Origin: a virus
IMG/VR virus record: IMGVR_UViG_3300048851_000105
Span: 61,779 to 125,778 of that record
DNA length: 64,000 nucleotides
Direction: 5' to 3' (one strand)
The notes under the pieces are model-generated. The model had not been told where the DNA came from, ran no database searches, and worked only from the letters and a program-made list of their open reading frames with translations. Below, in pieces: positions 36,842 through 53,922 of this stretch. Position numbers and translations under genes: made by a program. Within the stretch, counting starts at the first letter, position 1, and each line of letters starts with the position of its first letter.

Positions 36842-37615
36842 ATGACTCAGGTCCTCAGTCTCACCCAGGACGACAACTCGCTCATCCTCATGCTGTCGGC
36901 CTCGGCCGGGTGCTCTCTCGACTCCAGCCCGAAGTCGAACTGGGTGGAGAAGGGCGGCGGCCTGCCCAACTACATCTGCCAGATCGCCAAGGGCGTGATG
37001 AAGAGCGGCAAGAGCAAGTCGCAGGCCATCGCCATCGCTGTGTCGCGCGTCAAGGCATGGGCGGCAGGTGGCGATGACGTCGAGGCAGGCACGCAGGCCA
37101 AGGCCGCGAAAGCGCTCGCGCAGTGGAACACCCTGAAGGGCCGGAACAAGGCCAAGAAGATCAGCCTCTCCCGACGCGAGGACGGCGCCGAGTACCTCAT
37201 GTTCTCGAACACGACCTCGTTCAACACCGAGATCGTTCGCGCCGCCTGGGAGGACCTCCAGCGCGAGAAGCGCAAGGCCGAGCAGGTGAAGCGCCGAGCG
37301 GCCGGACAGGACCCCTACGAGTCGGAGATCGGCATGTACTCGTGGGTCAAGGAACTCTGGACCGACTACCTCATCGCCACGGCGGAGGGCTCGTCCGGCG
37401 TGGAGTACGTGAAGGTGCCGTACACGGTCGACGACAGCAACAACGTCACCTTCGGAGACCCCACGATCGTGCACCAGGTCTGGGAAGAGGTCGAGGCTGA
37501 GGAACTCTCCGACAACGAACTCGAACTCCTCATGCGTCACCTCGAACTCTCGGCGCCGCGGCGCACGACCGCTAGCGAGCGGATCATGGAGTTGTCAAAT
37601 AGACTTCGTGGATGA
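36842..37615 (+). CDS. putative head-associated protein
   Basis: NWVEK.GGLP.YI..IA...SQAIAIAV domain; multiple hxLS motifs; precedes terminase. Confidence 0.65.
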   Translation: MTQVLSLTQDDNSLILMLSASAGCSLDSSPKSNWVEKGGGLPNYICQIAKGVMKSGKSKSQAIAIAVSRVKAWAAGGDDVEAGTQAKAAKALAQWNTLKGRNKAKKISLSRREDGAEYLMFSNTTSFNTEIVRAAWEDLQREKRKAEQVKRRAAGQDPYESEIGMYSWVKELWTDYLIATAEGSSGVEYVKVPYTVDDSNNVTFGDPTIVHQVWEEVEAEELSDNELELLMRHLELSAPRRTTASERIMELSNRLRG

Positions 37616-39510
37616 GTAATGCTCGTATGTCGGAGCGCCTGGCGCTCTTCGACGATCACGCTCCGGTCGAGACCTCACTGGAAGCCCTCTTCTGGGAGGA
37701 GCCGGTGCCCCTCGACGTCTTCGTCCAGGACAAGAAGTACCTCGGCAACCCACCGCTCAGTCCTGAGCAGTATCGACTCGTGCAGCACGCCGAGCGTATC
37801 TATCTGCCGCAGACGTTCCAGGACATGGCCGACACCTTCGGCGGGTACTGGAACGAGACTCGCCTCACCCGGATGGTCAACACGATCGTCGCGCAGTGGG
37901 GCAAGGGCGGTGGCAAGGACCACACCGTCCGTGTGGCGAACCTCCGGGTCACCTACCTCCTGCTCTGCCTGAAGAGCCCGCAGCGCTACTTCAGCATGCC
38001 GGACCAGGACTCGATCCACCTCCTCAACATCGCGTCGTCGTCCGGCCAGGCGAACCGAGCATTCTTCAAGCCCATGACCCAGGCCGTGAAGCGCGGCTGG
38101 TTCGCGGACTTCGCCGACCCCAAGCGCGACACCATCGAGTACGACAAGAACATCGAGGCGATCTCCGGCCACAGCGACGCTGAGGGTCAGGAGGGCATGA
38201 ATCTCATCTTCGGCGTGGCCGACGAGATCGACGCGTTCAAGGCCAAGGACGAGATGATCGGCCAGGGCAAGCGCGCTCGCGAGGCTTCCACCTCAGCCGA
38301 GTCGATTCTCGAAATGCTGAAGACCTCGGCGAGCACCCGTTTCCCGTGGTCGTACAAGCGCGTGGCCATCTCCTACCCCCGCTACCTCGGCTCCACGATC
38401 CAGCGCCTCACCACGGCCGGACAGGCCGACATCGACCTCATGGGCGAGAAGAGCAAGGAGTTCGTCTCCGGGCCTCTCGCCACGTGGGAGGTCAACCCGC
38501 GCGTGCCCGGCCGCGAGGCGTTCGAGGCGGACTACCGCCAGGACCCCTCCGCAGCCGCCGCGAAGTACGAGTGCAAGCCGAGCCGATCGACGGACGCCTA
38601 TTTCCGCAACCCGAACCTCTTCAAGCAGTCCGTAGTCCAGGAGACGCAGCCGCTGAAGATCACCTACAAGGTCTCGACGGTGAAGTCCTCCGAGACCGGC
38701 CAGCCCGTGCGAGTGTGGGAGCCGGAGTTCCACTTCGACGACGACTTCCTCCCGGCGGACGGTGCGCTCTACGCCATCCACGCGGACCTCGCGCTGCGGG
38801 GTGACCGGGCAGGCGTGGCCATGAGCCATGTCAAGACCCTCCAGGACCGTACCGAGACGATCATCGACGAGGACGACAACATCGCCGGTGAGACCACGAT
38901 CACGGTCCCGCTGGTGAAGAACGACTTCACGGTGGCCTTCACTGCGGACTCCGCCGCGCGCGATGCCGCGGAGCAGCCGATGCCGAGGGAAATTCAGATC
39001 AGGTGGGTGCGCATCCTCATCTTCCACCTGATCCGTCGAGGCTTCACGATCGTGCGAGTGACCTACGACCAGTTCCAGTCGGCCGACTCGATGCAGACGT
39101 TGGAGCGACACGGCATCAAGACCGATCGACTGTCCACCGACGTCAACGACAGCGTGTGGAAGACCCTGATGGACGTCGTCTCCGACAACCGCCTGGAGAT
39201 GCCCTACGACCCCATGCTCCAGATCGAACTGGAGGCCCTCACCCGCCTGTCTAACGGCAAGGTCGACCACCCACCGGGTGGATCGAAGGACATGGCGGAT
39301 GCGTTCGCCTGCTCGATCCAGGGCGCCGTGCTCGTGGGGGGCGAAGAGAATGCCAATGGTAGTGACGTACTGGTTGACGAGAGTTCGTTCCGCATGGGCT
39401 CGGCAGGCGACCCCTTCGATCAGGGCGAGTACGGATACACTGGAGCACTCCCGGGCGGCGGTTTCGGAGTACCGATGGGCATGAAGGGTTTCGGACATGG
39501 CGGCTGGTAG
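37612..39510 (+). CDS. terL: terminase large subunit
   Basis: GKGGGKD Walker A; VADEID Walker B; HADLALRGD and YDQFQS...DHPPGGSKDMADA nuclease motifs. Confidence 0.92.
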   Translation: MSNARMSERLALFDDHAPVETSLEALFWEEPVPLDVFVQDKKYLGNPPLSPEQYRLVQHAERIYLPQTFQDMADTFGGYWNETRLTRMVNTIVAQWGKGGGKDHTVRVANLRVTYLLLCLKSPQRYFSMPDQDSIHLLNIASSSGQANRAFFKPMTQAVKRGWFADFADPKRDTIEYDKNIEAISGHSDAEGQEGMNLIFGVADEIDAFKAKDEMIGQGKRAREASTSAESILEMLKTSASTRFPWSYKRVAISYPRYLGSTIQRLTTAGQADIDLMGEKSKEFVSGPLATWEVNPRVPGREAFEADYRQDPSAAAAKYECKPSRSTDAYFRNPNLFKQSVVQETQPLKITYKVSTVKSSETGQPVRVWEPEFHFDDDFLPADGALYAIHADLALRGDRAGVAMSHVKTLQDRTETIIDEDDNIAGETTITVPLVKNDFTVAFTADSAARDAAEQPMPREIQIRWVRILIFHLIRRGFTIVRVTYDQFQSADSMQTLERHGIKTDRLSTDVNDSVWKTLMDVVSDNRLEMPYDPMLQIELEALTRLSNGKVDHPPGGSKDMADAFACSIQGAVLVGGEENANGSDVLVDESSFRMGSAGDPFDQGEYGYTGALPGGGFGVPMGMKGFGHGGW

Positions 39511-41332
39511 CGAGGTGGCGCGGAAGGGCTCTTCTGGGGCCGCTCGGAGCGCCAAGAAGAACCGCAAGGCCGATGTCGTCGAGGCACTCAACGTCGAGCA
39601 GGGCGTCGACGCCGTCACGTCGTACATCTCGACGTTCGGCTCGGTCAGTCTCACGGGGCTCTCGAAGAACCAGAACGAACTCTTCCAGGAGGTCATGCGC
39701 CGACAGGGTGAGGACGCCGGTCCCACCGTTCGTCAGTTGGTCGCCATGCGCCGGATGGACGGCCAGGCTCGCGCGCTCTACCGCCTCCTGACGCTCCCCA
39801 TCCGCGCCGCGCTGAAGACAGCCACGATCATCGGAGACGATGACAGCGAGGAGGAGCGCCAGTTCATCGACGACGTCTTCCACCTGGCTCCTGAGTCCGG
39901 TGGCATGACCGTCACCTTCAACCGCTTCATGGGGCAGTTGCTCCAGGGTCTCTTCGACGGCTTCGCCGCGTTCGAGAAGGTCTTCTGGATTCCTGAGGAG
40001 GGGCCTCTCGCAGGCAAGGTGACGCTGAAGAAGTTGGCGCACCGACCCTCGGAGACCGTCACCTTCGTCATCGACAAGACGGGCGGCTTCTCAGGCATCC
40101 GCCAGCGGACGTTCTACTACGGCAAGCCGGTCGACGTCTTCATCCCCAAGAACCGGTGCTTCTACTGGGCCGCTCAGGAGGAGGAAGAGAAGTTCTACGG
40201 TGTCTCCTTCTTCGAGAGCGCGTTCTATCACTACGACAAGAAGGCCCGGCTCTACTACGCGTCGCACCTGGCCTCGTTCCGCGCGGCGGTCGGCACGCGC
40301 ATCGGCACGGTGCCCGCTGGCGCTTCGTCGAAGGCCAAGAGTGAGTTCGCCGCGTCGATGGCGAACCTCTCCATGGCGCAGTGGCTGATGATGCCCGAGG
40401 GCTTCAAGGTCGAGGTGCTTCAGGAGGGCGGCAACTACGACTTCCTCGCGCAGATCAACCACCACAACTCGGCGATGTCGAAGTCGATCCTCGCGAACTT
40501 CTTCGATAAGGACCAGGGCGCGGGGCAGTCCGAGGCCTCGCTCGTGAACTTCGGGCAGCCGGGCGACGAGATGTTCAACCTCATGCTCCGCGCGATCCAG
40601 AACGACATCGCGGACCAGATCAACCACTACATCATCCCGCAGTTGATCGACCTCAACTTCGGCACCGCGCGCTACCCCAAGTTCACGTGGGGCGCGCTCA
40701 CCGACGAGCAGAACGCCGCCATCGCGAAGACGTTCGACAAGTTGGCCAGCCAGCAGACGATCACGCCGGAGTTCATCCGGGCGATGGAAGAGCACCAGGC
40801 CAAGGAGTTCGGGCTCGACATCGACTACGACGAGGTCGATCTCCGCGAGGAGGAGGAAGCCGAGGCAGAGGCGGCTCTGGGAGCCATGCCGGGTCAGGAG
40901 GGTGCCGTTCCCGGCGCCGAGCCTGGCGGACTCCCTGGCAGCCCTCCAGCCGCCCCTGGTGCTCTGCCTGAGCCTCCGGCTCCCGGTGGGGCGCCCACGC
41001 CTCCCGTGCCCGCAGGCGACCCCGCAGAGCCTCCCACAGATGATGCTGGCCCGAGCGCCGCCCCGGCGTCCGCCGAGGGTGTCGAGAGCCCTGAGGCCTG
41101 GTCGTCCCTCGCGGACTTCGAGGAGGCTCTGGGTATCGAGGAGTCGGAGGACGAGGAGAACGACGACTTCGAGGAGCAGTTGACCCTCAGCGTCATCGAA
41201 GATTTCGAGAATCGACTCGAACTGAGCGCTGCGCTCGACGACTACGAACTGTCCCTGTCTCGCGACGAGGACAACCTGCTCACGATGGCGCAGAGCCTGC
41301 TCGATGCCGCTGGAGGATACGCCAATGCGTAA
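39497..41332 (+). CDS. portal protein (Mu gp29/DUF935-like)
   Basis: follows terL; GFAAFEKV, YG.S.FE, INHHN.AMSK.IL, IPQLID.NF..ARYPKF; Pro/acidic C-terminal tail. Confidence 0.88.
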   Translation: MAAGSEVARKGSSGAARSAKKNRKADVVEALNVEQGVDAVTSYISTFGSVSLTGLSKNQNELFQEVMRRQGEDAGPTVRQLVAMRRMDGQARALYRLLTLPIRAALKTATIIGDDDSEEERQFIDDVFHLAPESGGMTVTFNRFMGQLLQGLFDGFAAFEKVFWIPEEGPLAGKVTLKKLAHRPSETVTFVIDKTGGFSGIRQRTFYYGKPVDVFIPKNRCFYWAAQEEEEKFYGVSFFESAFYHYDKKARLYYASHLASFRAAVGTRIGTVPAGASSKAKSEFAASMANLSMAQWLMMPEGFKVEVLQEGGNYDFLAQINHHNSAMSKSILANFFDKDQGAGQSEASLVNFGQPGDEMFNLMLRAIQNDIADQINHYIIPQLIDLNFGTARYPKFTWGALTDEQNAAIAKTFDKLASQQTITPEFIRAMEEHQAKEFGLDIDYDEVDLREEEEAEAEAALGAMPGQEGAVPGAEPGGLPGSPPAAPGALPEPPAPGGAPTPPVPAGDPAEPPTDDAGPSAAPASAEGVESPEAWSSLADFEEALGIEESEDEENDDFEEQLTLSVIEDFENRLELSAALDDYELSLSRDEDNLLTMAQSLLDAAGGYANA

Positions 41333-43334
41333 GGTCGCCACCCCGGGAGGGTCTCGCTACTACGGCCTGCCGATCGGGGCCCCGATCACGGCGGACGCCA
41401 TCGCCAAGGCACGCGCGCGCAACGGCGGCAAGCGTCCCCCGGCGGGCTCCACGGCTCCGGCCGGTGCTGTGCGCGGAGCCCCAGTCAAGCGTGTTGCGCA
41501 GCAGAGGGAAGCAGCCGCAGCGGCTCAGGCCGCTCGCAAGGTCTCTCCGACCATCACCTTCACGCCGCCGTCCGAGAAGGCATCGGGCACGAAGGTGAAG
41601 GCGGGATCGGCCGTGTTCGGCGTACCCAAGAACTCGCGCACGTTCAAGAAGGACGGCTCGCTCGTCTCCTACAACGTCGACTCCGCGGGCAACCTGCGGG
41701 TGCTCACGCCGAACGGCGAGGCCAATCTCACGCCCGAGGCCGAGGCGCGTGTCAAGGCGCTCATGGTCGCCGAGCGCGAGAGCCTGACCGAGACCACCCC
41801 GGACGCAGCGCCGAAGCCCGAAGAGCCTGCCACGGACGCCGCTCCTGCCAAGCCGCGTTCGCGGTTCGCGCGCACCAATGAGGACGGCACGCCCAAGGAG
41901 ACGCCAGCGTCGCCGAAGGTCGATTCTGCGAAGCAGGATGCGGAGCGTGAGGAGCGGCGCCGCAAGTCGGCCGCGCAGGAGGCCGAGTCCAGGCGCACCG
42001 GCGTCTTCAACGAGTACGACCCCAGCAAGCGAGCCGCTGAGGGAGGATCGGACGTCGAGACGACTCCGCTCACCGAACTCGGATACGACCGCGACGAGGA
42101 GGTCACCATCTACCGCGGCGTCCCCGCGGACGCTGAGGGCGGCATCAACGAGGGCGACTGGGTCACCCCGGATGAGCAACTGGCCAAGGACTACGCAGGC
42201 ACCGGCCGAGTCGAGAGCAAGGTCGTGAAGGCGCAGGACCTGCGTACCGACCCCGAGGACGACTCGATGTCGGAGATGGTCTACGTTCCCGAATCTTCTT
42301 CCGCGGGTGCTGGGGAGTCCGACGACGCCGAGGCGTTGGACATGAGCACGTCGGGCCTCTTCCAGGGCCGCATCGAGGACTCGCTGGGTGAGTCTGTCGC
42401 ACCGGCCGAAGACGACCTGGCGGACATGCGACGCAGCCCGCTGACGAGCCAGCACATGACCCCCGAGGGCGAGTTCACACCTGAGCGCAAGGCTCTGCAC
42501 GACCAGATCATCGCGCGCTTCTTCGATGGCGTCGAGGCGGTCGACAACCCTGTCCAGTTCATGAACGGCGGTGGGCCCGCCTCGGGCAAGGGGACCATGA
42601 CGCGTGGCGACAACGCCAAGATCACGGGCTACCCCGCCACGCACATCGTCGACGACTTCGGCAACTTCAAGCCGGTCGAGAACCCGGGTGGCGTGATCGT
42701 CGACCCGGATCAGTTGAAGTTGTCCCTGCCCGAGGGCAAGAAGGCAGTCACCGACTTCGCCAACGGCGTCGAGCGCGACGAGGCCCACACCGAGTGGGCG
42801 GCGAACCTCCACGGCGAGTCGAGTTACCTCGCGCAGCGCCTCGTGGCGGCCGCGCACGAGCGTGGGGTGAACCTCATCCTCGACGGCGTCAACGACGGCT
42901 CGGCCGAGTCTGTCAAGCGCAAGGTCGAGAAGGCCCGCAGCCGCGGCTACAAGGTCGAGGCGAACTACATCTACCTCGACCCCGAGGAGGCACTCGCACG
43001 CGCTCGATCGCGAGCGGAGCGTGCCGGACGCCGCGTGCCGGAGAAGATCGTCATCGGTGCCTACTCGAAGTTGCCGGGCATCTTCGACGCGATCAAGGAG
43101 GGCCTCTTCGACAAGGTGCGCCTCTTCGACAACAACGTCGAGGGGTCGAACGCCTACCTCGTGGGAGAGGGGTCGCTCGACGGCTCCTTCGACTTCAAGC
43201 AGCCCGACTACGCAGAGGTCTACCAGCGCTACCTCGACAGCCAGAAGGTCGCGGAGGGCCTCCTGGGGCTCACGCAGAAGTCGGACGCTGACCGCGCGCT
43301 GAAGAAGAACCTGAAGGACCTGGCCGGTAAGTAA
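41325..43334 (+). CDS. putative virion-packaged effector: shared N-terminal domain + ART-like domain + zeta-toxin-like P-loop kinase
   Basis: GGAGG RBS; VTIYRGV..INEGDWVT..LAKDY...E; MNGGGPASGKGT, VDPDQLK, HGESS, NLILDG, RARSRA..GR.VP, FDKVRLFDN. Confidence 0.75.
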   Translation: MRKVATPGGSRYYGLPIGAPITADAIAKARARNGGKRPPAGSTAPAGAVRGAPVKRVAQQREAAAAAQAARKVSPTITFTPPSEKASGTKVKAGSAVFGVPKNSRTFKKDGSLVSYNVDSAGNLRVLTPNGEANLTPEAEARVKALMVAERESLTETTPDAAPKPEEPATDAAPAKPRSRFARTNEDGTPKETPASPKVDSAKQDAEREERRRKSAAQEAESRRTGVFNEYDPSKRAAEGGSDVETTPLTELGYDRDEEVTIYRGVPADAEGGINEGDWVTPDEQLAKDYAGTGRVESKVVKAQDLRTDPEDDSMSEMVYVPESSSAGAGESDDAEALDMSTSGLFQGRIEDSLGESVAPAEDDLADMRRSPLTSQHMTPEGEFTPERKALHDQIIARFFDGVEAVDNPVQFMNGGGPASGKGTMTRGDNAKITGYPATHIVDDFGNFKPVENPGGVIVDPDQLKLSLPEGKKAVTDFANGVERDEAHTEWAANLHGESSYLAQRLVAAAHERGVNLILDGVNDGSAESVKRKVEKARSRGYKVEANYIYLDPEEALARARSRAERAGRRVPEKIVIGAYSKLPGIFDAIKEGLFDKVRLFDNNVEGSNAYLVGEGSLDGSFDFKQPDYAEVYQRYLDSQKVAEGLLGLTQKSDADRALKKNLKDLAGK

Positions 43335-43343
43335 CCGGCACAC

Positions 43344-43359
43344 GTTACTGTGGTAACGT
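43344..43359 (+). promoter_or_regulatory. class 1 palindrome/-10 upstream of a small gene
   Basis: GTTAC-TGTG-GTAACGT. Confidence 0.6.
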
Positions 43360-43379
43360 AGGAGTGAAAGGAGGCGCCG

Positions 43380-43568
43380 ATGAAGATGAGCATGACGCAG
43401 TTGGGTCACTTGCAGGCCTTCTACGCATCCGGAGCCACGTTCGACGAGTTCATCACGGAGCACAAGATTCCCGAGGACATGCGCGCTGAGGCGCAGGTGT
43501 TCTGGGACGACGTCGCTGCGGACAGCAAGGCGAACAAGGGCACGACGATGCTGGTACCGTCCGACTAG
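43380..43568 (+). CDS. small protein, candidate immunity/antitoxin
   Basis: AAAGGAGG RBS; directly after the zeta-like gene. Confidence 0.65.
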   Translation: MKMSMTQLGHLQAFYASGATFDEFITEHKIPEDMRAEAQVFWDDVAADSKANKGTTMLVPSD

Positions 43569-43598
43569 ACGACCGACAGCAGCCGGGTGCTCTAGGAT

Positions 43599-43847
43599 GT
43601 GCCCATGGCGACTCTCGACGACTCCACGGACTCGATCCTCGACGATCAGACCCCGGAGGAGGCACCCCTTCCTCCCGTGACGGCCGAGCGCCTTCGTTCT
43701 CTGCGAGCCCTGATCGAGTACCGCTCAGAGGCGGGCGAGACGGACGCCGTGCAGGTCCTCACCGAGAAGTTCCGGTCTGAGTACGACCGCTTCGCTGAGG
43801 GGAAGACCGAAGAGGAGATCGACCAGGCGCTGAACAAGGCGCCGTAG
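43599..43847 (+). CDS. hypothetical protein
   Basis: TAGTG coupling to MuF. Confidence 0.65.
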   Translation: MPMATLDDSTDSILDDQTPEEAPLPPVTAERLRSLRALIEYRSEAGETDAVQVLTEKFRSEYDRFAEGKTEEEIDQALNKAP

Positions 43848-44674
43848 TGGCGTCGATCGCCGCTCAGTTGGAGTCGGCCCGCGTCAGCGCTCGCGCCGCG
43901 GCCTCCTTCGAGGCCATCAACCGCAGCCGGATCGAGCAACTCTTCGCCGACTGGGACGCAGGCCTAATCTCGAATCGACAGATCAGGCACCGTCTGGAGA
44001 ACGTCGTCCGCGGCGGCTACCGTGCCTCGGGCGCCACCGCGCGCGAGCACACACGCCGAGCCTCCGAACTGCCGGACTGGGTCCCGGCCAACCAGACCTT
44101 CCTCACGCCGTACCTCAACAGCCTGCTCGCGGATGTGCGTCGCAATCTCCGTGAGTACGCCGCTGTGCGCACGCGGAGGTCCTCCAGCGCTGACGACGTC
44201 GAGAAGGCCCGTAGGCGTGCGCTCCTGCGCATCAAGCACAGCGCCGGGGTGGCGACCACCCGCGGCTACACAGACGGCCTCATCCAGGCTCACGTCGAGT
44301 TGGAGGACCTCGGCTTCAAGGTCGTGAAGGTCTGGATGGCCAACTTCGAGAACAACACCCCCTGCCGATACTGCCGAGCGCTCCACGGCACCCAGCGCGG
44401 GCTCCAGGAGACGTTCCAGGTGCAGGTGAAGGAGGGCACGCGCCTTGCGATCTACCGAGACCTCCAGGGCCCTCCCCGGCATCCTCAGTGCCAGTGCTAC
44501 CTCGCGATCCTCATCATCACCTTGGAGAACGCGTTCGAGCCCATCAACGTCGACGCTCCTGCGGACCCTGAGGATGAGACCTCCGCAGCGGCGGTCCGGA
44601 ATCTTCCTCTGGCAGTGTTCCGGGCCATCATCGCGGCTCTACGGGCCATCGCGCGCTTCACCAGAGGAGAATGA
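43847..44674 (+). CDS. MuF-like minor head protein
   Basis: KVW...PCRYCRALHG...PPRHPQCQC. Confidence 0.8.
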   Translation: MASIAAQLESARVSARAAASFEAINRSRIEQLFADWDAGLISNRQIRHRLENVVRGGYRASGATAREHTRRASELPDWVPANQTFLTPYLNSLLADVRRNLREYAAVRTRRSSSADDVEKARRRALLRIKHSAGVATTRGYTDGLIQAHVELEDLGFKVVKVWMANFENNTPCRYCRALHGTQRGLQETFQVQVKEGTRLAIYRDLQGPPRHPQCQCYLAILIITLENAFEPINVDAPADPEDETSAAAVRNLPLAVFRAIIAALRAIARFTRGE

Positions 44675-44677
44675 AAA

Positions 44678-44899
44678 GTGGCTGACCGAACCAGATTCTT
44701 CTTCGACGATGTGAAGGACGCTGCGGACGCTCTCGTGCTGGTGCTCGAACATGCCCGGAATCACAAGGATGTGCAGTTCCGCTTCGGCCCTACGACGGCT
44801 CCGGCCATTCTGCAAAGTGGTCTCTGGCTAGAGGGTCAGATCGCCGACTTGGCTGATAGCATCGGGAAGAAGATTCTGGCAGTGCGTCACGACGAGTAA
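44678..44899 (+). CDS. hypothetical protein
   Basis: GAGGAG RBS. Confidence 0.6.
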   Translation: MADRTRFFFDDVKDAADALVLVLEHARNHKDVQFRFGPTTAPAILQSGLWLEGQIADLADSIGKKILAVRHDE

Positions 44900-44908
44900 G
44901 GATTCGCC

Positions 44909-47900
44909 TTGGTCCGCAAGATCGGCCCCAACACCCGCTACGTGAAGACCGCTGAGGGTGCCGCCTTCTACGGACAGCCGATCGGCTCGCCGATCACCCC
45001 CGACATCATCAAGAAGAAGAATCGGGAAGCCGCCAGCATCGGCATCACGCCTCCGAAGGGCGCAGTCGAGGACGCAGCAGGCAAGCCGGTCAAGAGCGCA
45101 GAGGTCGCGCGACCGGCCGTCAAAGTCAGCGCTCCGCAGGCCACCGGCCCCAGCGCGTTCAAGATCGGTAACTCCGAATTCGGTGTGGCTGAGGGCTCCC
45201 GAATCTTCCAGCCCAAGAGCAACCCTGGCATCCGCTACATCATGGAGCCGGACGGCACGATCCGTGCGTTCAACCGTGACGGCGAAGCCGAGGTTCCTGA
45301 GACCCTGGCCGGGTCTCTCCGCGATCGTTTCGAGAATTTCGATGAGGGGGATGCTCGATACGAGGAACTCCAGTTCGACGGCACCGCGCCGACGAGCGAG
45401 GAGGACGTCGAGGAAGGGGCCGAGGCCGGATCACCAGGCGGAGAGGCTCGCGCTGAGTCGGCCTCCTCTGCCACGGGCAAGTGGAAGAAGCAGACCGTCT
45501 CCTACTTGCCTCCGGCTCCCGCAGGCACCAGCACGAAGCCCGAGCGCGCACAGGGTGACGGGTTCCTCTGGTCCACGGACGAGCGGTGGGGGCTCGTGAA
45601 GAGCACCACCGGCAAGGGCTACGACCTCTTCCACGCGCCCACAGGTCTCGGCATTCGTCGCAACCTCCCACGAGCGGATGCCGCCGAGTACGCAGCCGGG
45701 TTCGCCACCCTGCCTCCCCTCAGCATCGACAAGGTGGGGGAGGATTTCTCCACCGACTCGCTCGGAGACCACAAGCGCGACATCCAGAAGGTCGCAGGTG
45801 TGACGCGAGCCGTAGCAGCGGGCTCGGAGATTCCCACCTTCGAGGACGAGACCGGATCAGACGCCCCCACGGATGCCCCGGCGCCCTCTCCGGAGACCGC
45901 GAACGTCCCCGCTCCTTCGTCTGAGGATTCCTCCTGGAGTGAGCAGGGCCAGGGAGATGTCGTCTCGGAGTCGTTCGTGCGCCAGGCGCCGACCGGCTCG
46001 CAGGTCATGCACTTCCCCACGACCGGCAAGAAGGTCCTCCCCACGATGTGGACCAAGAACGACGACGGCACGTGGTCCTCGAACAAGTCGAGCAAGATGG
46101 TCACCGACGACCAGATGGTGTCCGCGCTCGGGGACAACGTCCTCATCGCTCGTGTCGGCCCCGAGGCTCCTGAGGACAGCGCGCTCTACCCGGGCGCTCC
46201 CGACTTCTCGACGGAGGACCTCCAGGCCGCCTACGACTCCCTCCTCGCGCACCCCGGCTTCCAGATCGCCTACGGCCTGCCGCAGGACTCTCCTCTCCGC
46301 GGGAAGGACGTCATCGGCGCCCTCACCACCGCGGCACGAGCCGAGCGCGCGGGGCTCTCGCCGAAGCAGGCCGTGCTCGCCCACCTCCGGGCCCACCTCG
46401 GCATCGAAGAGCCTCCGGCAGATGCGCCCACCGACGAGCCGCAGATCACGGTCGGCGCTGCGGAGCCCAAGCGTACCGGCGTGCAGGGCTTCAACGGCGG
46501 CCAGTTCACGCGCGCCGACATCCAGGAGGCAGTCGACATCCTGGAGGCGTTCCAGGGCAAGGCCTTCAAGAGCGAGTTGAACAAGAAGGGCAACGCGCTC
46601 GGCACTCTCGACCCGGCCTCGATGGTCGGCATCGAGAAGGACAAGACGATCGCGAAGCAGAAGTTCGTCGACTACCTGCGAGGAATCCTCGACGCCAACC
46701 CGCCCGCCGATGCGTCCACTTCCGAGCAGCCCCCTGCGCCGGAGAACCAGGACCGCACGCCGGAGGAGATCGTCGGCACGAGTCCTGAGTCCGTATCAGA
46801 GATCGAGTCCCTCCCGGCCGGAACTCTGGCCGCCTACTTCGCTCGCGTGTACGCCAAGAATGAGGACGGCACGTGGAGTCAGCCAGGCGACACGGAGTCC
46901 ACCCCGCTCAACTCGGAGGACTTCGCCTACACGCTCCGCGGCTTCATCGTTACGGCGCTCCCGGAGCAGGGCACGGACGAGACGCCCGATGCTGATCCTG
47001 CTCCGGAGCCTGAGGCGGAGACCTCCGAGTTCGGTGAGCGTCTGGAGGACCCCGCCGACTTCGCGAGCACGTCCAACATCGGAGACTCTCTCACCATCAC
47101 GCGTCCGGACGGCTCCCGCGAGACGCTGGTGCGTATCCCGGACGAGGGCGGCCAGCGCGCATGGCGCACCGGACTGGGATTCATCCAGTACGACAAGGAC
47201 CTCTTCTTCCTCCCCGGCGAGAACGAATACTTCGGCCGCCGTGCCGAGGCACCCGCCGACAGCGGCGGCAGGGTCGAGGAGCCCCCCGCTCCAAGTCCCG
47301 AGCCCGCGGGTCCTGCTTTCGCTCCCGGACAGAACGCGACCGGAGCCGACGTCGAGAGCATGGTCGACGGCACTCGGCTGATCTACACCCGCAAGGACGG
47401 CCGCACGACGGCGTACACAGTGCGACTCGGAGGTCGAGTTCTTGTGACCGACCGAGGCACGGAAGTCGCCTTCGACCGCGTCGCTCGCATGAAGTTCCTC
47501 GTCTACAGCGTGCCCGGTGCTGAGCAGCCTCCCACGTCGTCCAATGCGCCTGTTCCCGCTCCCCAGGATGCTCCTCGTATCGGAGACACCGGAGTCGGAG
47601 ATCGGGTTCCGAGCCGGTACGCCCTCGAAGAGGCCCCGGTGGGTTCTCAGGTGGTCGACCTTGCAGGTGCTTCGTACACCAAGACCAGCCCTTACGAGTG
47701 GCGAAACAACGTCACTGGAGAGGCATTCGATGGCTCCAGTGTGACCTCGTCGTTCCGTCGAGAACTGACGTGGGCTCACATTCCGGAGAAGGCTCCGGAC
47801 ACGCCGTGGGTGGCGCCCGAGCCCAGCCCCACGTGGACTCAGTTCGGTGGTTGGAAGAAGGGAGACTTCCTCACTCTTCGCGACATGGATCGTGATCTCG

Positions 47901-50815
47901 AAAGCCTCCCGGTCCTCAGTTACGTCTCTCTGCAAGACCCTGAGGATCGCGAGCAGAATCTTCTTTTCTCGAAGGACCCGGATGGCCGCTGGTCCGGTCA
48001 GAGCGTTTTCACTGGGGAGAAGATTTCTCCAGTGGACTCGACGACGCTGCGGGACATTGTGCTCGCGCGCCACGCCAAGGTCGAGATCACCCGTGTCGGA
48101 CTTGCTCACGAGCAGCCAGGAGCGGGCTCCAAGGTCCTCTTCACCGACGTCGAATCGGCCCGTATCGGCGATGTGTTCCTCTATCGAGACCCCCGCATGC
48201 GCGGTCGTGAGGTCCTCTTCCAGGCTGTGGATGATGAGGCTGGCGGCATCGACTGGATCAGCAACGTCCCCGACATCCCCTTCGAGCGGTCCGCTACCCT
48301 GCTCAACTACGCCCGCTACGGTCACCTCTACACGGCCAACGCGGAGGACTTCGATCGTCCGTTCCTCATCATGACCGCGGACGAGTTCGAGAGTCAGGCT
48401 GTAGGCACTCTGGTTCGAGCGGGCAGTGGCTACTTCATCCGCGAGGAGGGTCCTGACGGACCACAGTGGGTGGCGATTCCCTCGCGGCGCTCTGGAGACT
48501 ATCGACAGCCGGTGACGTCGAACCATCTGGCTCTTCTCGCGGCGAACTCCACTTTCACCAATCGCAGCGCACGGACGGGGTACGTGCTCCGAGACGGAGC
48601 CGCTGAGACGATCGAGCCTGTGGTCGGCGCCGAGATGTCTCCTTTCGATCTTCAGTTCGTGCCGAGGGGCACGCGCGTCGAAACAGCCACAGGCGTGTTC
48701 GTGTCGGACGGAAACGACCGCTGGACGCGCGAGGATTCGACCGAATCTCTCCTTGGCGAGACCTGGGACTCTCTCGGCATCCAGTACCCAGTCGTGCGCG
48801 TGCTTCGTGTCGGCCGCGAGGAGGCCTCCCCCGCATCTCCCAACACAACTGTCCCGTACGAGGACATGATCCGTTACCCGGTAGGGTCACGCTTCCGGGT
48901 CGGCGGAATCCGCAGCGGTGAGTGGACTGTCATTGACGATCGCTCGATGACTGACGGCCGACAGAACTACGCCTTCGGAATCTTCGACCGCGACGACGAT
49001 GCGACGTTCGAGTACATCGGTCGCACCGACATGAGTGCCGTCCCCGAGATCGGCTCCGCGGTGCCCTTCCCGGATCAGATGCGCTCGCTTCCTGTCGGAG
49101 CATTCCTCACGAGCGCATCCAACGTCGTCAGCGTCCAGAAGGTCGGTCCTGACTCCTACGCCGTCGTGCGCGATCGAGGCCGTACGTCCAGTGATGGGGA
49201 CCGCTATGAAAACGCTGAGGACCTCCTGTCCAACATGCGCACGACGCTCACCTACGACCGTGACGCACATTCTGGCGAACCCGTCACGGCAGACTCCTCC
49301 CAGATCGGGTCGGCGCATGTTGGTGCGATCGTCGTGAATGGCAACGACCTGCGCGACGCGCGGACGCTCACTGAGAGCGGCTGGGAGACCCGAGATGGGA
49401 ACCCCGTCTCGACGGAGGAACTGCGCACTCTCTTAGGTGAGGGCACGCACTACTTCCAGGCGAAGCGTACGCCCGCCAGCAAGTACGTGACGGCCGGGGA
49501 GATCGCCATTGCGAAGCCGGGCACTGCGGCTTACCTGCGCCTCCCCAAGGGAGCGGATGGGCACAAGACGAAGCGCCTGGTCTTCAACGGCACCTCCTGG
49601 CTCACGACGGACGGCAAGGACAGCCGGTACGCAGAGCCTCGCGAGTTCACGACAGACGAGATGCTGGCAGCAGCGGCTCGCGGTGACGTGAAGATCACGT
49701 CCGAGGCACGCCCTCGTCTCGATCACGAGGAGTACGTCCAGGCCGTCCAGAGCGCTGAGACCCCTGCGGATGCTCTCGCACTGGCTCGCGCGCAGCATCC
49801 TCGTGTTCGCTACCGCGACTGGGACTTCCGCAAGACGGAGCGGCCGTCCGATCGAGTCGACAAGATGCAGGCGTACCGAGAATTCCTCATCGAAACCGCG
49901 AGGCAGTTCGACAACTACCCCGAACTCCAGTCCGTCAGGTCGATCGGAGGTGAAAACTCTACGGCGATGGCATTTGCGTGGGTGAATCACCGTGTCGGAG
50001 CCACGACGATCGACACGTCCTCCATGACGATGAACATGAAGTGGGGAAAGTGGAGCACCGGGGTAGGGTATCGAACGTCCCAGGCAACCAACCACTTCCA
50101 CGGCGTACCCCGCCGAGGCATCACGCCCGCGATGCAGACGGTCACGCACGAGTTCGGGCACCTCCTCGACACGAACACGGGCATGACGATGGGCGCTGTC
50201 GCCAAGCGTGCCGAGCAGGAGTTCCTCTCTCGCTACCCGGCTGGTCCTGAGCGAGATGCCGTGCAGGCGCAGACGAGCAAGTATGCGCAGACGAACTCGG
50301 CCGAGTTGGTTGCGGAGTCCATCGAGAACTGGACGAATGGCGAAGAGGTCGAGCCAATCACTGAGCACATCGTCGCAGCGCTTCAGGAGCACTACCGGGT
50401 GGTGACCGGCAACACCCGATTCGAGTTCAAGAAGAACCCCGGCCGTCCGGATGCTCCGATCAACTTCGACCCGAACAAGCACGTCGTGCTCCTGCCGGGC
50501 GCGCACAGCATGGGATCGTTGACCGCTCGCGAGGGACTTCCAGCCACAGTTCAGGAACTGCGAGACGTGCCGGAAGGAACCACGGTGCGGATCGCTCAGA
50601 ATGACGAAATCTGGACCAAGGAGAAGGACAACACCTGGCGTAAGCCGAACGGTTTCGTTGACACCCTGAATGAGCCGAACACCTTCATCCAGAAGGAGCG
50701 CTTCGAGGCCGGAATCTTCTTTGTCAGCATCACCGAGCCGGAGAAGCAGCCCTGGACGGAGAACTACTCCACCGACCCCCGCAGCGTGAACTACTCGGCC
50801 GATCGCGGCGAGTGA
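44909..50815 (+). CDS. 1968-aa putative virion-packaged polyvalent protein with repeats and HExxH metallopeptidase
   Basis: N-terminus paralogous to 41325 gene; ~14 LPxG...WxK...W repeats; THEFGHLLD...SKYAQTN..ELVAE. Confidence 0.75.
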   Translation: MVRKIGPNTRYVKTAEGAAFYGQPIGSPITPDIIKKKNREAASIGITPPKGAVEDAAGKPVKSAEVARPAVKVSAPQATGPSAFKIGNSEFGVAEGSRIFQPKSNPGIRYIMEPDGTIRAFNRDGEAEVPETLAGSLRDRFENFDEGDARYEELQFDGTAPTSEEDVEEGAEAGSPGGEARAESASSATGKWKKQTVSYLPPAPAGTSTKPERAQGDGFLWSTDERWGLVKSTTGKGYDLFHAPTGLGIRRNLPRADAAEYAAGFATLPPLSIDKVGEDFSTDSLGDHKRDIQKVAGVTRAVAAGSEIPTFEDETGSDAPTDAPAPSPETANVPAPSSEDSSWSEQGQGDVVSESFVRQAPTGSQVMHFPTTGKKVLPTMWTKNDDGTWSSNKSSKMVTDDQMVSALGDNVLIARVGPEAPEDSALYPGAPDFSTEDLQAAYDSLLAHPGFQIAYGLPQDSPLRGKDVIGALTTAARAERAGLSPKQAVLAHLRAHLGIEEPPADAPTDEPQITVGAAEPKRTGVQGFNGGQFTRADIQEAVDILEAFQGKAFKSELNKKGNALGTLDPASMVGIEKDKTIAKQKFVDYLRGILDANPPADASTSEQPPAPENQDRTPEEIVGTSPESVSEIESLPAGTLAAYFARVYAKNEDGTWSQPGDTESTPLNSEDFAYTLRGFIVTALPEQGTDETPDADPAPEPEAETSEFGERLEDPADFASTSNIGDSLTITRPDGSRETLVRIPDEGGQRAWRTGLGFIQYDKDLFFLPGENEYFGRRAEAPADSGGRVEEPPAPSPEPAGPAFAPGQNATGADVESMVDGTRLIYTRKDGRTTAYTVRLGGRVLVTDRGTEVAFDRVARMKFLVYSVPGAEQPPTSSNAPVPAPQDAPRIGDTGVGDRVPSRYALEEAPVGSQVVDLAGASYTKTSPYEWRNNVTGEAFDGSSVTSSFRRELTWAHIPEKAPDTPWVAPEPSPTWTQFGGWKKGDFLTLRDMDRDLESLPVLSYVSLQDPEDREQNLLFSKDPDGRWSGQSVFTGEKISPVDSTTLRDIVLARHAKVEITRVGLAHEQPGAGSKVLFTDVESARIGDVFLYRDPRMRGREVLFQAVDDEAGGIDWISNVPDIPFERSATLLNYARYGHLYTANAEDFDRPFLIMTADEFESQAVGTLVRAGSGYFIREEGPDGPQWVAIPSRRSGDYRQPVTSNHLALLAANSTFTNRSARTGYVLRDGAAETIEPVVGAEMSPFDLQFVPRGTRVETATGVFVSDGNDRWTREDSTESLLGETWDSLGIQYPVVRVLRVGREEASPASPNTTVPYEDMIRYPVGSRFRVGGIRSGEWTVIDDRSMTDGRQNYAFGIFDRDDDATFEYIGRTDMSAVPEIGSAVPFPDQMRSLPVGAFLTSASNVVSVQKVGPDSYAVVRDRGRTSSDGDRYENAEDLLSNMRTTLTYDRDAHSGEPVTADSSQIGSAHVGAIVVNGNDLRDARTLTESGWETRDGNPVSTEELRTLLGEGTHYFQAKRTPASKYVTAGEIAIAKPGTAAYLRLPKGADGHKTKRLVFNGTSWLTTDGKDSRYAEPREFTTDEMLAAAARGDVKITSEARPRLDHEEYVQAVQSAETPADALALARAQHPRVRYRDWDFRKTERPSDRVDKMQAYREFLIETARQFDNYPELQSVRSIGGENSTAMAFAWVNHRVGATTIDTSSMTMNMKWGKWSTGVGYRTSQATNHFHGVPRRGITPAMQTVTHEFGHLLDTNTGMTMGAVAKRAEQEFLSRYPAGPERDAVQAQTSKYAQTNSAELVAESIENWTNGEEVEPITEHIVAALQEHYRVVTGNTRFEFKKNPGRPDAPINFDPNKHVVLLPGAHSMGSLTAREGLPATVQELRDVPEGTTVRIAQNDEIWTKEKDNTWRKPNGFVDTLNEPNTFIQKERFEAGIFFVSITEPEKQPWTENYSTDPRSVNYSADRGE

Positions 50816-50831
50816 GAGAAGGAGACAGGCC

Positions 50832-51062
50832 ATGATGCCGTACGGAGCATCCATCACTGAGCAGGAACTCGACGCAGCGCTCGACGAGGCAGCCACGGGT
50901 ATGACCCGCACCGACCTCGGCGTCAACGAACCGATTCGAGAAATCCTGACTCGGGTGGCGACGAACCGCGCAGTGTCTGACGAGGATGCTGCGGAAGCGC
51001 ATCGCCTCCGTCAGGAGATGGAGGACGAGGAGAACCTCGCGGAGGCTTCCTCAGGCCAGTAG
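50832..51062 (+). CDS. small acidic protein, candidate immunity
   Basis: GAAGGAG RBS; directly after the peptidase gene. Confidence 0.6.
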   Translation: MMPYGASITEQELDAALDEAATGMTRTDLGVNEPIREILTRVATNRAVSDEDAAEAHRLRQEMEDEENLAEASSGQ

Positions 51063-51096: not shown

Positions 51097-52221
51097 ATGG
51101 GAGACCTCGCGATCATTCCTCAGCCTCAGGGGGCCGGAGGATACCTCGAACTGGCACGTGGCTCTGGTGAGGCGCGCAAGAAGCAGGGACGTGTCTTCGA
51201 GAAGCACATCCTCAACTACGGCACGCTGAAGCACCCCAAGGCGCCCGGCGGCGAGGTCGAGATCGACGACAAGTTCGTCGACACGATGATCCTCAACTTC
51301 TCGAACGGTGTCTGCGACATCGTGCAGGTCCCGGTTGCCGGGTCGAAGAACGAGCACACCGAGGACCCGATGCGCAACATCGGCGAGGTCATCGACATCG
51401 TGAAGCGCGACAACAAGGTCTACGTGCACATCGACGCGCGTAACGATGCCGCGGCCGACGCGCTCGGCAAGACCCTCATCGGCGCCAGCGCCATGATGGA
51501 CCTCAACTACACGGACACCCGCACGGGGCTTCCCGCGGGCCCGACTCTGCTTCACACGGCGGTGACCAACCGTCCGTACGTGACTGGCCTGGAGGACTAC
51601 CAGGAGGTCATCGCAGCATCTGCCAATGGTAGTGAGGACGAAGTTCTCATGCTCACCGCATCAGACCAGGAGAAGAACATGCCCACCAAGGACGAACTCA
51701 TCGCCGCACTGAAGACCGAGCACGGCGTTGACGTGGCCGCTCTTCTTGCGGAGCACGACTCCGCTGTCGCTCTCTCGAACGGCCTCCGTGAGGCCCTCGG
51801 TGAGACCGGCGTCCTCACGCTCTCGAACGGTGACACCGCCACGACCGACGACTTCATCGCCGCCGTCGCCGAGACCGTCAAGTCGAACATCTCCCTCAGC
51901 GCTCGCGTCGAGACGCTGGAGGAGAAGGACCGCAAGACGGCCGCCACCAGCCGCGTCGAGTCCCTCATCCGTCAGGGCAAGATCGCCCCGGCCGAGAAGG
52001 ACGCGCGTGTCCGTCTGCTCCTCTCCGCCCCGGACCTCTTCGAGGAGATGGTCCCCGCGACGCCGATCGTCGCCCTCTCGAACGAGTCGGAGGGAGAGAG
52101 CGGCGAACTCGGCATCCTCCCGCTGTCGAACGACCAGGACAACACGCTCACGACGGAGATCGACCGCATCGTCGCCGACGCCGCAGCCGCGGGCATGCCG
52201 GTTCAGACCAGCGCCGCCTGA
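51097..52221 (+). CDS. capsid maturation protease / scaffold fusion
   Basis: position before decoration and MCP; M..NF...H...GEV, GASA, LLHTAVTNRPYV.GL (Mu gpI-like); helical C-terminal scaffold. Confidence 0.8.
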   Translation: MGDLAIIPQPQGAGGYLELARGSGEARKKQGRVFEKHILNYGTLKHPKAPGGEVEIDDKFVDTMILNFSNGVCDIVQVPVAGSKNEHTEDPMRNIGEVIDIVKRDNKVYVHIDARNDAAADALGKTLIGASAMMDLNYTDTRTGLPAGPTLLHTAVTNRPYVTGLEDYQEVIAASANGSEDEVLMLTASDQEKNMPTKDELIAALKTEHGVDVAALLAEHDSAVALSNGLREALGETGVLTLSNGDTATTDDFIAAVAETVKSNISLSARVETLEEKDRKTAATSRVESLIRQGKIAPAEKDARVRLLLSAPDLFEEMVPATPIVALSNESEGESGELGILPLSNDQDNTLTTEIDRIVADAAAAGMPVQTSAA

Positions 52222-52265: not shown

Positions 52266-52673
52266 ATGAACCAGTTCGACTACCCCGGCAACGCGACTCC
52301 GGCACCCACCCTCACCTCGGGCGGCACCACGGTCGACGACGAACTGCTCGCGTCGTACAGCCCGCCGCCCCTCCAGAAGGGCATCACGCTGAAGCGCGGC
52401 CAGGGCATCCTGCTCCTCGGCACGCTCCTCGCGTACGAGGCGTCGAGCAAGCGCTACGTCAAGACGACGGACGCGGCCCAGGCGGTCGGCTTCCTGCGTC
52501 GGACGACCAACACGGGAGCCGCGGGCGACACGTCGTTCCCCGAGTTCGTCGGGAACATCGTCAAGAAGGGGCAACTGAAGTTGCCCAAGGTCCAGGCGGC
52601 CAACTCGGGCGTCTCTCTCACCGGTCTCCTCGGCGGTCGCGTCGACGAGCCCGGCGGGATGTTCATCTTCTAG
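52266..52673 (+). CDS. head decoration protein (lambda gpD-like)
   Basis: GITLKRGQGILLLGTLL...AVGFL; lies between scaffold and MCP. Confidence 0.75.
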   Translation: MNQFDYPGNATPAPTLTSGGTTVDDELLASYSPPPLQKGITLKRGQGILLLGTLLAYEASSKRYVKTTDAAQAVGFLRRTTNTGAAGDTSFPEFVGNIVKKGQLKLPKVQAANSGVSLTGLLGGRVDEPGGMFIF

Positions 52674-52860: not shown

Positions 52861-53922
52861 GTGCCTGACATCTCGATCCTTCAGCCGCAGGTGCTCCTCG
52901 GCGTCCTGCGGCGTTTCACGACCCCGGAGAGCCTCACGCTCCTCTCGCGGGTCCCGACGCAGAACCACCCCTTCCCCACGGCGGAGTGGCAGGTCGTTCG
53001 CGGCTCGCGAGCCATCGCCAAGCCGAACGTCCCGAACTCCGAGGCGAACATCGTGCCTCGGCTCGGTCGTTCGAGCGTCCAGGCGGCGTTCATGTACCTT
53101 CGCGAGAAGAAGGTCTTCGAGCCCACCACGCTCCACTGGCTCCGCCAGGCCGCGGCGAACAACCTCCAGGACCTCGGCGTCAACCAGCAGGCGGAGCAGG
53201 CGGTCACTCGTGAACTCGCCGACCTCAACCAGCGCGCCGACAACCTCGCCGAGTACGCGCTCTGGCAGTCCCTCACGGGCCGCCTGGTCATCGACTCGGA
53301 GACGGTCCAGGCCGACGTGGACTACAAGTTCCTCGCCAGCCACAAGGCCGCCCCGGCCGTGTCGTGGGCCAACGCCACCCCCGCGGGTATCGTCGCCGAC
53401 GTCACCGCCTTCAAGCGCCTCGTCGAGCGCGACGGCCGTGTCCGCGCGGTCGACGCATACGCCACGGAGAAGACCCTCGCCTACATCTTCCAGTCGTTCG
53501 CGACCGGCGGCACGGGCAACCCGGGTGTTCTCATGTCCGACCGGATGAAGGACTCGTACTTCGCGTCCGGCACCATCCCCGGCTTCATGGGCCTCAACTG
53601 GATGCCGCAGACCGCGGTGTTCGACGCGGTGGGTGCGTCCTACACGGCGAACCCGACCGACCCCTACCAGGAGACGCCGTTCCTCGCGGACGACACGCTC
53701 ATCATCGGCAACTTCACCGACAACCGGCCGATCGAACTCATGGTCGGCCCGACCGCGGACGACAGCGCCCCGGTCGGCTACACGGGCAAGTTCACCAAGA
53801 CGTGGAAGGAGGAGGACCCGAGCGCACGCCAGATCCTCCTGGAGTGGCACTTCCTCCCCGTCATCACGCGCCCGGAGCAGTTCGTCTACGTCGGGAACGT
53901 GACCCAGCCCGCCGCAGGCTGA
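52861..53922 (+). CDS. major capsid protein (lambda gpE-like)
   Basis: 353 aa; EY..WQ.L.G, VDYK, W...DP...LLEWHFLPVI; followed by a terminator. Confidence 0.88.
   Translation: MPDISILQPQVLLGVLRRFTTPESLTLLSRVPTQNHPFPTAEWQVVRGSRAIAKPNVPNSEANIVPRLGRSSVQAAFMYLREKKVFEPTTLHWLRQAAANNLQDLGVNQQAEQAVTRELADLNQRADNLAEYALWQSLTGRLVIDSETVQADVDYKFLASHKAAPAVSWANATPAGIVADVTAFKRLVERDGRVRAVDAYATEKTLAYIFQSFATGGTGNPGVLMSDRMKDSYFASGTIPGFMGLNWMPQTAVFDAVGASYTANPTDPYQETPFLADDTLIIGNFTDNRPIELMVGPTADDSAPVGYTGKFTKTWKEEDPSARQILLEWHFLPVITRPEQFVYVGNVTQPAAG

Follow-up and report, generated by a model that had tools for sequence, protein, structure and literature searches.

How could a tailed phage bring enzymes into its head when they are fused neither to the portal nor to the MuF-type minor head protein? 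The question is raised by a 64,000-nucleotide stretch of viral DNA (hereafter the window), which comprises bases 61779-125778 of the virus record IMGVR_UViG_3300048851_000105. The window is the right half of that 125,778-bp record, which has direct terminal repeats and is estimated to be complete. Two of its genes, here called A and B, encode proteins that begin with the same short peptide, to which we refer as the header. Both are encoded between the portal and the protease and capsid genes, that is, among the virion (late) genes, and the portal, A, MuF and B are separate open reading frames (ORFs) with no covalent fusion to MuF or portal. A preliminary description of this DNA had placed the two genes between portal and protease, on either side of a MuF without fused cargo, and the gene order agrees with it.

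We propose that the header is the mark of polypeptides destined for incorporation into the procapsid, at the portal vertex or close to it, and that it stands in for a covalent fusion to the portal or MuF, by which other phages carry enzymes of the same kinds. A and B are probably internal virion cargo proteins, which would be built into the capsid and delivered with the DNA. The proposal builds on the shared unit, its spread among phages, the variable cargos behind it, its head-gene context and the presence of one header protein in the virions of another phage.

Genes A and B and their shared N-terminal unit

The two genes and their parts are given below. Gene calls, here and later, combine the list of ORFs with Pfam and PHROGs, and all lie on the + strand.

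41325..43334 (+): gene A, 669 residues, with header motif, spacer, beta domain, putative ADP-ribosyltransferase (ART)-fold domain and zeta-type kinase (Pfam Zeta_toxin; BLASTP against B)
41328..41387 (+): header motif of A, residues 2-21
41586..41759 (+): beta-rich second block of A, residues ~88-145 (alignments; homology to the modelled block of B)
42057..42299 (+): putative small ART-fold domain, A residues ~245-325 (phrog_2579, E=9.2e-8; a fold-level call only)
42549..43136 (+): zeta-toxin-type kinase domain with P-loop (PF06414, 66.1 bits, E=3.8e-18; phrog_16619 'minor head protein', E=4.4e-28)
44909..50815 (+): gene B, 1968 residues, a 'giant' head-module protein with header, spacer, beta domain, conserved core, degenerate beta-rich stretch and HExxH module
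44936..44995 (+): header motif of B, residues 10-29 (model pLDDT ~84)
45152..45334 (+): beta-rich second block of B, residues ~82-142, six strands and a helix (AlphaFold model, pLDDT ~90)
46046..46708 (+): core module common to giant proteins, B residues ~380-600 (BLASTP of B 360-730)
49661..50434 (+): HExxH module, possible zincin-type peptidase (motif at residue 1747, bases 50147-50161)

BLASTP with compositional adjustment aligned residues 2-141 of A with residues 10-134 of B (51 of 144 positions identical, 35%; 53.1 bits, E=8e-11) and gave no further segment better than E=0.5 outside the N-terminus. Both blocks that the preliminary description had quoted as shared are present, and the similarity is significant. 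The single carrier domain of ~140 residues that it had assumed did not hold up. Alignment with eight giant proteins of relatives resolved, in order, the header with a short helix, a spacer of very variable length and a conserved beta-rich block of ~60 residues; the unit is a motif of ~22 residues and a separate beta domain, joined by a disordered, length-variable spacer.

An AlphaFold model of the B unit is consistent with this division, with pLDDT values of ~84 for the header, below 50 for the spacer and ~90 for the beta block. Foldseek found no fold for the N-terminal unit at E<=0.001. A wide structural search (VIA) gave a best Z of 4.1, and the header and the beta block matched different chains in it, so they are probably separate units. 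Searches of the N-terminal units against Pfam at E<=10 yielded nothing meaningful.

The header reads [V/I]-R-x-V-R-T-P-E-G-A-x-x-Y-G-x-P-I-G-S-x-I and is followed by a short basic helix. It is the most conserved part of the unit, with a mean column identity of 57% over 27 instances; as a pattern was used to choose these, the invariant columns are in part a product of that choice. When the complete 125.8-kb genome was scanned in six frames with a pattern for the motif, only genes A and B matched. In A it begins at residue 2, after an ATG at 41325 with GGAGGA 8 nt upstream, and in B at residue 10, after a TTG at 44909. The beta block is restricted to proteins of the giant and A types. The header is reminiscent of helix-hairpin-helix motifs and of the short cargo peptides that are read by encapsulin shells; neither resemblance was supported by Pfam or fold searches.

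The zeta-like kinase that had been suggested for A lies well above the Pfam gathering threshold of 22.3 bits. The other suggested enzyme, an 'ART-like' part, stands at the level of fold, and we assign residues ~245-325 to the ART fold with moderate confidence. At least 32 of the 50 VIA matches listed for this segment are ART, PARP, Tpt1 or ART-toxin chains by title, although the best Z is only 5.5, which is weak, and leads from the Atlas agree with an ART at 0.76-0.79, below the level that counts. The AlphaFold model of the segment has a mean pLDDT of 61 and a core of 72-82; with this model Foldseek found no ART at E<=0.001, and Pfam gave no match to the segment even at E<=10. A PDB sequence search with A returned nothing below E=0.4. 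A thus holds at least two unrelated enzyme domains in one polypeptide, the zeta kinase and, with moderate support, the ART fold. Two relatives of A (P0020 and P0034) have an extra C-terminal domain after the zeta kinase that A does not have and that, by eye, looks like a RelA/SpoT-type nucleotidyltransferase.

The only recognisable enzyme-type module of B is the one with the HExxH motif. The motif that had been taken to indicate a peptidase is indeed there, once, and the module is common to only two stored relatives (P0198 and P0191); the assignment to a peptidase is less certain, as Pfam gave only sub-threshold matches to the M90 and M43 families (E~0.1). A PDB sequence search with the C-terminal part of B found no match, pieces of B gave nothing meaningful against Pfam at E<=10, and the Atlas offered no usable match for B 370-620. 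The repeat array that had been described in B was not recovered, because self-BLAST gave no off-diagonal match at E<=10 and only a loose recurring D-G-x-W pattern is present. The core module of ~220 residues occurs in many stored giant proteins at very different positions (e.g. 541-757, 868-1088 and 1366-1603).

Spread of the header and its presence in virions

An exhaustive search with the header profile among 1.84 billion proteins identified 881 cluster representatives at E<=0.001, 147 of them at <=1e-10. A word-indexed search with a 42-column header profile gave 83 proteins of very diverse Pfam content. A single header copy is present in 116 of 214 stored proteins, in 101 of them within the first 60 residues. 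The other 98 carry 2-7 copies at a median spacing of 312 residues, which corresponds to one header copy ahead of each module.

Pfam families were found in 23 of the 52 header proteins that were scanned. These comprised type IB topoisomerase (8), zeta toxin (4), 2H phosphoesterase (3), GNAT (2), MuF (2) and LysM (2), along with single cases of S78 prohead protease, ADP-ribosyltransferase exoenzyme, PG_binding_1, a PI3/PI4-kinase-like domain, DUF3626 and glutamine deamidase. NUDIX and peptidoglycan-binding domains were likewise found behind the header. The C-terminal cargo of homologues is thus variable by header-profile search and Pfam, with zeta kinase, ART, topoisomerase, phosphoesterase, GNAT, NUDIX and others. 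The header itself is covered by no family of Pfam, NCBIfam or PHROGs in the proteins scanned.

Among 18 related IMG/VR loci, the header is carried both by the giant protein and by a small protein of 108-144 residues encoded just after the portal, which we call S. The order terminase, portal, S, MuF, giant header protein, protease, capsid is kept in these relatives. In two loci (L015 and L018) S is joined to the C-terminus of the portal, and in a third (L021) MuF is the fusion partner of the header. Large header proteins are also encoded between the portal and capsid genes of the Gordonia phages DalanDe, Forza with its relatives, and GMA2, of the Brevibacterium phage Cantare and of the record named Microcystis phage Mwe-JY05; those of Forza and its relatives are annotated as ADP-ribosyltransferases. 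The Microcystis phage record (L026, PP395638) has 74% G+C, an actinophage-like head module and a header of 33.4 bits, and its stated cyanobacterial host looks doubtful.

A search of plasmids for the header gave one match, in Rhodococcus rhodochrous 'plasmid unnamed3' (L027, NZ_CP027560). This 85-kb circular element has a full phage head module, in which a 576-residue header protein is encoded directly after the minor capsid (MuF) gene, and it is probably a phage-plasmid. A scan for prophages in one genome per species, made with one header pattern, returned 2 candidate loci, neither of which was a true instance.

The preliminary description regarded the shared N-terminus as an address unit. This view was borne out in part: the header is portable and, among the head genes, is joined to cargos of different kinds. 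It is not purely N-terminal, however, and is also placed between the modules of polyproteins, on portal C-termini and in fusions with MuF and protease.

The relatives of the kinase of A provide a further comparison. A scan of viral contigs with the single protein found nothing, while a query with an alignment of the A family gave matches; 80 loci were fetched with it, and 40 ORFs, from 40 of these 80, were scanned. MuF accompanies the zeta domain in 10 of the 40 ORFs and a portal domain (from three Pfam families) in 7; a Tudor-like N-terminal domain is present in 4, other enzymes or an intein in 4, and Pfam found nothing more in 15. The header was present in only 1 of the 80 loci. Since the zeta cargo is fused to MuF or portal in 17 of 40 ORFs, the header unit of A appears to hold the place of a covalent head anchor.

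Evidence from virions comes from phage GMA2. In the virion mass spectrometry of Dyson et al. 2015 (PMC4524720), Table S5 gives only three proteins for purified GMA2 virions, and orf10 is one of them, with 29.4% coverage. The header of Orf10 lies at residues 132-152, and the first listed virion peptide, mapped by eye on the translation, covers residues 142-155, inside the header. A header-bearing protein is therefore present in the GMA2 virion with its header kept, which argues against a T4-type removal of the header by the prohead protease in Orf10. By eye only, Orf10 has ART-like and 2H-like sequence features. None of its 18 peptides precede the header (residues 1-141), where 6 of the 44 detectable tryptic peptides lie (P ~0.06-0.07). 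We also considered cutting before the header in Orf10 and rejected the missing N-terminal peptides as evidence for it, as their absence is not significant.

The local history of gene A can be followed in part. The source of the window is a lytic-type actinobacterial phage related to the Microbacterium phage Magritte, the nearest named phage, in which the gene order is identical but a counterpart of gene A is absent; megablast of the region against cultured phages found no match. A begins where S begins in relatives, and both the 8-nt overlap with the portal stop and the ribosome-binding site are identical. Over its first 31 residues, A shares 74% identity with the Magritte giant protein and is nearer to it than to B (35% overall). 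An A-like gene was found in only one relative (L030), and the order there is portal, A-like gene, small ORF, S, MuF, 73-residue ORF, giant protein. We infer, from these two genomes only, that a head-piece of the giant type with a new cargo may have recombined into the S slot and given rise to gene A.

The homologue of S in the window, 82 residues long, has lost the header, as judged by alignment. In L030, the header of S (L030:10579-10893) is degenerate, with 25 bits versus 46-49 bits for the other two headers in the locus; elsewhere the S header scores ~50-60 bits.

Possible roles of the header

In the preferred reading, the header does without a covalent bond what a fusion to the portal or MuF does elsewhere. 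It would bring a polypeptide into the procapsid and stay on it, and the enzymes would leave with the DNA. We give this reading a probability of about 55%. A and B would be made together with the head proteins, A by translational coupling to the portal gene. During procapsid assembly, the header would dock both proteins to an internal head component, and it would remain on the mature protein. At infection, the enzymes would enter the cell with the DNA, namely the ART-fold domain and zeta-type kinase of A and the HExxH module and further modules of B. The docking step, its receptor, the ejection and the targets of the enzymes are all conditional on this scheme, and the 'address tag' reading of the header is plausible but unproven.

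Several observations weigh against the scheme. The portal, protease and capsid families differ among header phages, being Portal_Mu, Mu-like_Pro and Phage_cap_E here and Phage_portal, S78 and Phage_capsid in Cantare, so a single conserved receptor site is not obvious. Many header copies are internal, and the header is also found on the portal, MuF and protease themselves, which would not be expected of a simple tag that links cargo to a receptor. Four contigs with the header (L011, L013, L014 and L017), which are fragments, 16-74% complete, yielded no MuF, the head part that is shared most widely. The evidence from virions was obtained with another phage and in a data set of low depth, and A and B are known here as genes. 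We also considered MuF as the universal receptor of the header; that candidate is weakened by the same four incomplete contigs.

In a broader version, tailed phages in general would use the header as a portable peptide for loading cargo, and a conserved site inside the head, either at the portal vertex or on the shell, would recognise it. Enzymes would be swapped freely by recombination at the header, and A would be one such swap into the S slot. We regard this version as possible and hold it only tentatively.

The main rival places the role of the header in processing. According to it, the header and the few residues that precede it mark a site at which the prohead protease (or an embedded HExxH peptidase) divides head polyproteins into modules, loading happens otherwise, and N-terminal copies are leftovers of that modular design. 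Such a marker would suit the 98 of 214 proteins with several copies between modules and the headers of polyproteins that include S78 protease, MuF or portal. Ahead of 148 distinct internal copies, conservation is weakly raised (E 27% at -5, K 33% at -3 and V 52% at -1), and a passage of the paper on polyvalent proteins (PMC5512222) proposes that a metallopeptidase cuts them into units. The lack of published GMA2 Orf10 peptides ahead of the header points the same way, but it does not reach significance, and the peptide inside the header indicates that the header is retained in the virion protein. Moreover, many proteins, A among them, have the header from residue 1-3 onwards, which leaves nothing ahead to cut off; the ~20 conserved residues of the header go far beyond the need of a cut site; and phages with at least two unrelated families of protease use the same header. 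On balance, we consider a processing marker unlikely.

The two remaining explanations are less likely still. The header might act in the infected cell, e.g. by tethering the modules to the incoming DNA or to a host factor conserved in actinobacteria. Its conservation across phages with differing portal, protease and capsid families would fit a partner that these phages have in common, the header is basic, as is the helix after it, and the cultured carriers infect Actinomycetota (Microbacterium, Gordonia and Brevibacterium), to which the Rhodococcus element can be added. A role after entry is nevertheless improbable, as the header is also found on assembly parts (S fused to the portal, fusions with MuF and protease) and is matched by no DNA-binding or other family and by no fold. 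Least probable of all is plain paralogy, in which recombination gave A the N-terminal structural domain of a giant-protein gene and the region in common does not itself serve as an address. The close identity of the first 31 residues of A with the Magritte protein, which points to a giant-type donor, and the restriction of the beta block to giant-type and A-type proteins are in its favour. It leaves unexplained why the header alone, without the beta block, is present on hundreds of unrelated proteins and on the small S proteins.

The head-gene block and known systems

The remaining genes of the block are listed below; the G+C content of the window is ~64%.

37612-39510 (+): terminase
39497..41332 (+): portal, Mu type (Pfam Portal_Mu, E=1.2e-35; phrog_113); its 3' end, with the stop codon, runs 8 nt into gene A
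43380..43568 (+): 62-residue ORF after A, no family match, one weak relative at the same place in locus L030
43599..43847 (+): 82-residue homologue of the small post-portal protein S, without header motif; matches the C-terminus of the L015 portal
43847..44674 (+): MuF-like minor head protein, 275 residues, no fused cargo (Pfam PF04233 below cut-off; PHROG head morphogenesis; homologues 40-51% identical in relatives)
44678..44899 (+): 73-residue ORF, kept beside MuF in relatives
50832..51062 (+): 76-residue ORF after B, no relative found
51097..52221 (+): Mu-like prohead protease/scaffold (Pfam Mu-like_Pro, E=2.2e-8; phrog_328)
52266-52673 (+): decoration protein
52861..53922 (+): major capsid protein (Pfam Phage_cap_E, E=1.1e-21; phrog_29)

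The name 'MuF-like' was chosen on account of weak profile matches and position: Phage_Mu_F (PF04233) scores 17.4 bits, under the gathering threshold of 29.6, and PHROG head-morphogenesis families match at 8e-6 to 4e-5.

The preliminary description had also assigned a small cognate immunity gene to each of the two effectors. Small ORFs of 62 and 76 residues do follow A and B; an immunity or antitoxin role for them is not supported and seems to us rather remote. In its favour, the A-like gene of L030 is likewise followed by a small ORF that is weakly similar to the 62-residue one (17% identity over 63 residues, E=8.6e-5 in a small one-locus database). Against it, none of the 62-, 73- and 76-residue ORFs has a family in Pfam, PHROGs or NCBIfam, and the 76-residue ORF has no relative among the small neighbours compared. 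The 62-residue ORF is the gene considered as a candidate epsilon-type antitoxin beside the zeta kinase. The 73-residue ORF, which precedes B, tracks MuF rather than cargo, being kept with MuF whatever cargo the giant protein carries.

Upstream of the terminase, a stand-alone gene (window 36842-37615, + strand) encodes a protein of 257 residues without a family in Pfam, PHROGs or NCBIfam. By eye, its domain is fused to header-bearing modules elsewhere, at the N-termini of P0003 and P0009, in the interior of P0016 and at the N-terminus of the 1669-residue protein of the Microcystis phage record (L026). To judge from these sequences, it may be another head-internal protein.

Inteins or insertions of intein size were noted in head-module genes (P0001, P0009 and P0052; L075; L020:6265-8823; L030:2594-5335). 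A MuF polyprotein and several zeta proteins contain Pfam matches to intein or LAGLIDADG domains, and a portal of 852 residues and a terminase of 914 residues each contain a large insertion.

The loading of enzymes without a covalent head anchor into capsids is known for a few model phages only (T4 and P1). If the preferred reading is true, the header would be a handle for predicting phage proteins that are injected with the DNA, and it would explain the exchange of cargo between phages. It is also a candidate tag for loading chosen proteins into the capsids of actinobacterial phages. As cultured carriers are available (Magritte with gp14 and gp17, Forza with gp80, Cantare with gp11, and GMA2), the idea is directly testable.

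In the literature searched and in Pfam, NCBIfam and PHROGs, we found no description of a conserved portable header shared by many phages. The closest set of enzymes is that of the phage-type polyvalent proteins and the effectors fused to MuF or portal, described by Iyer, Burroughs, Anand, de Souza and Aravind in 2017 (PMC5512222). The relevant passages of that paper place ART, zeta-type kinase, 2H phosphoesterase, metallopeptidase and RelA/SpoT-like enzymes among virion genes and predict that they are packaged and injected. The fusion of relatives of the A kinase to MuF or portal is a second point of likeness. In contrast, the cargos described here are encoded by separate genes that bear a conserved header peptide, which was not found in the paper's text on linkers and conserved motifs.

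Microbacterium phages, for which MuF-VIP2 toxin fusions and very large virion-associated genes are described in another report (PMC7302621), are similar in that these actinobacterial phages carry ART toxins and huge, probably processed proteins among their head genes. The toxins differ in being fused directly to MuF, and the matching text of that report makes no mention of a shared header peptide.

In terms of delivery, the nearest parallels are the capsid targeting sequences of the T4 internal proteins and of DarB of phage P1 (PMC9024508). These sequences were shown experimentally, and the first 30 residues of the 250-kDa DarB send a reporter into P1 capsids. As proposed for A and B, proteins with a short N-terminal peptide enter the head there and reach the cell from it, a likeness drawn by description. 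The T4 and P1 signals are experimental, while the header is known from sequence and from a published virion peptide. Unlike them, the header is conserved across many unrelated phages, can recur several times within a protein and, in the only virion protein with data, is retained.

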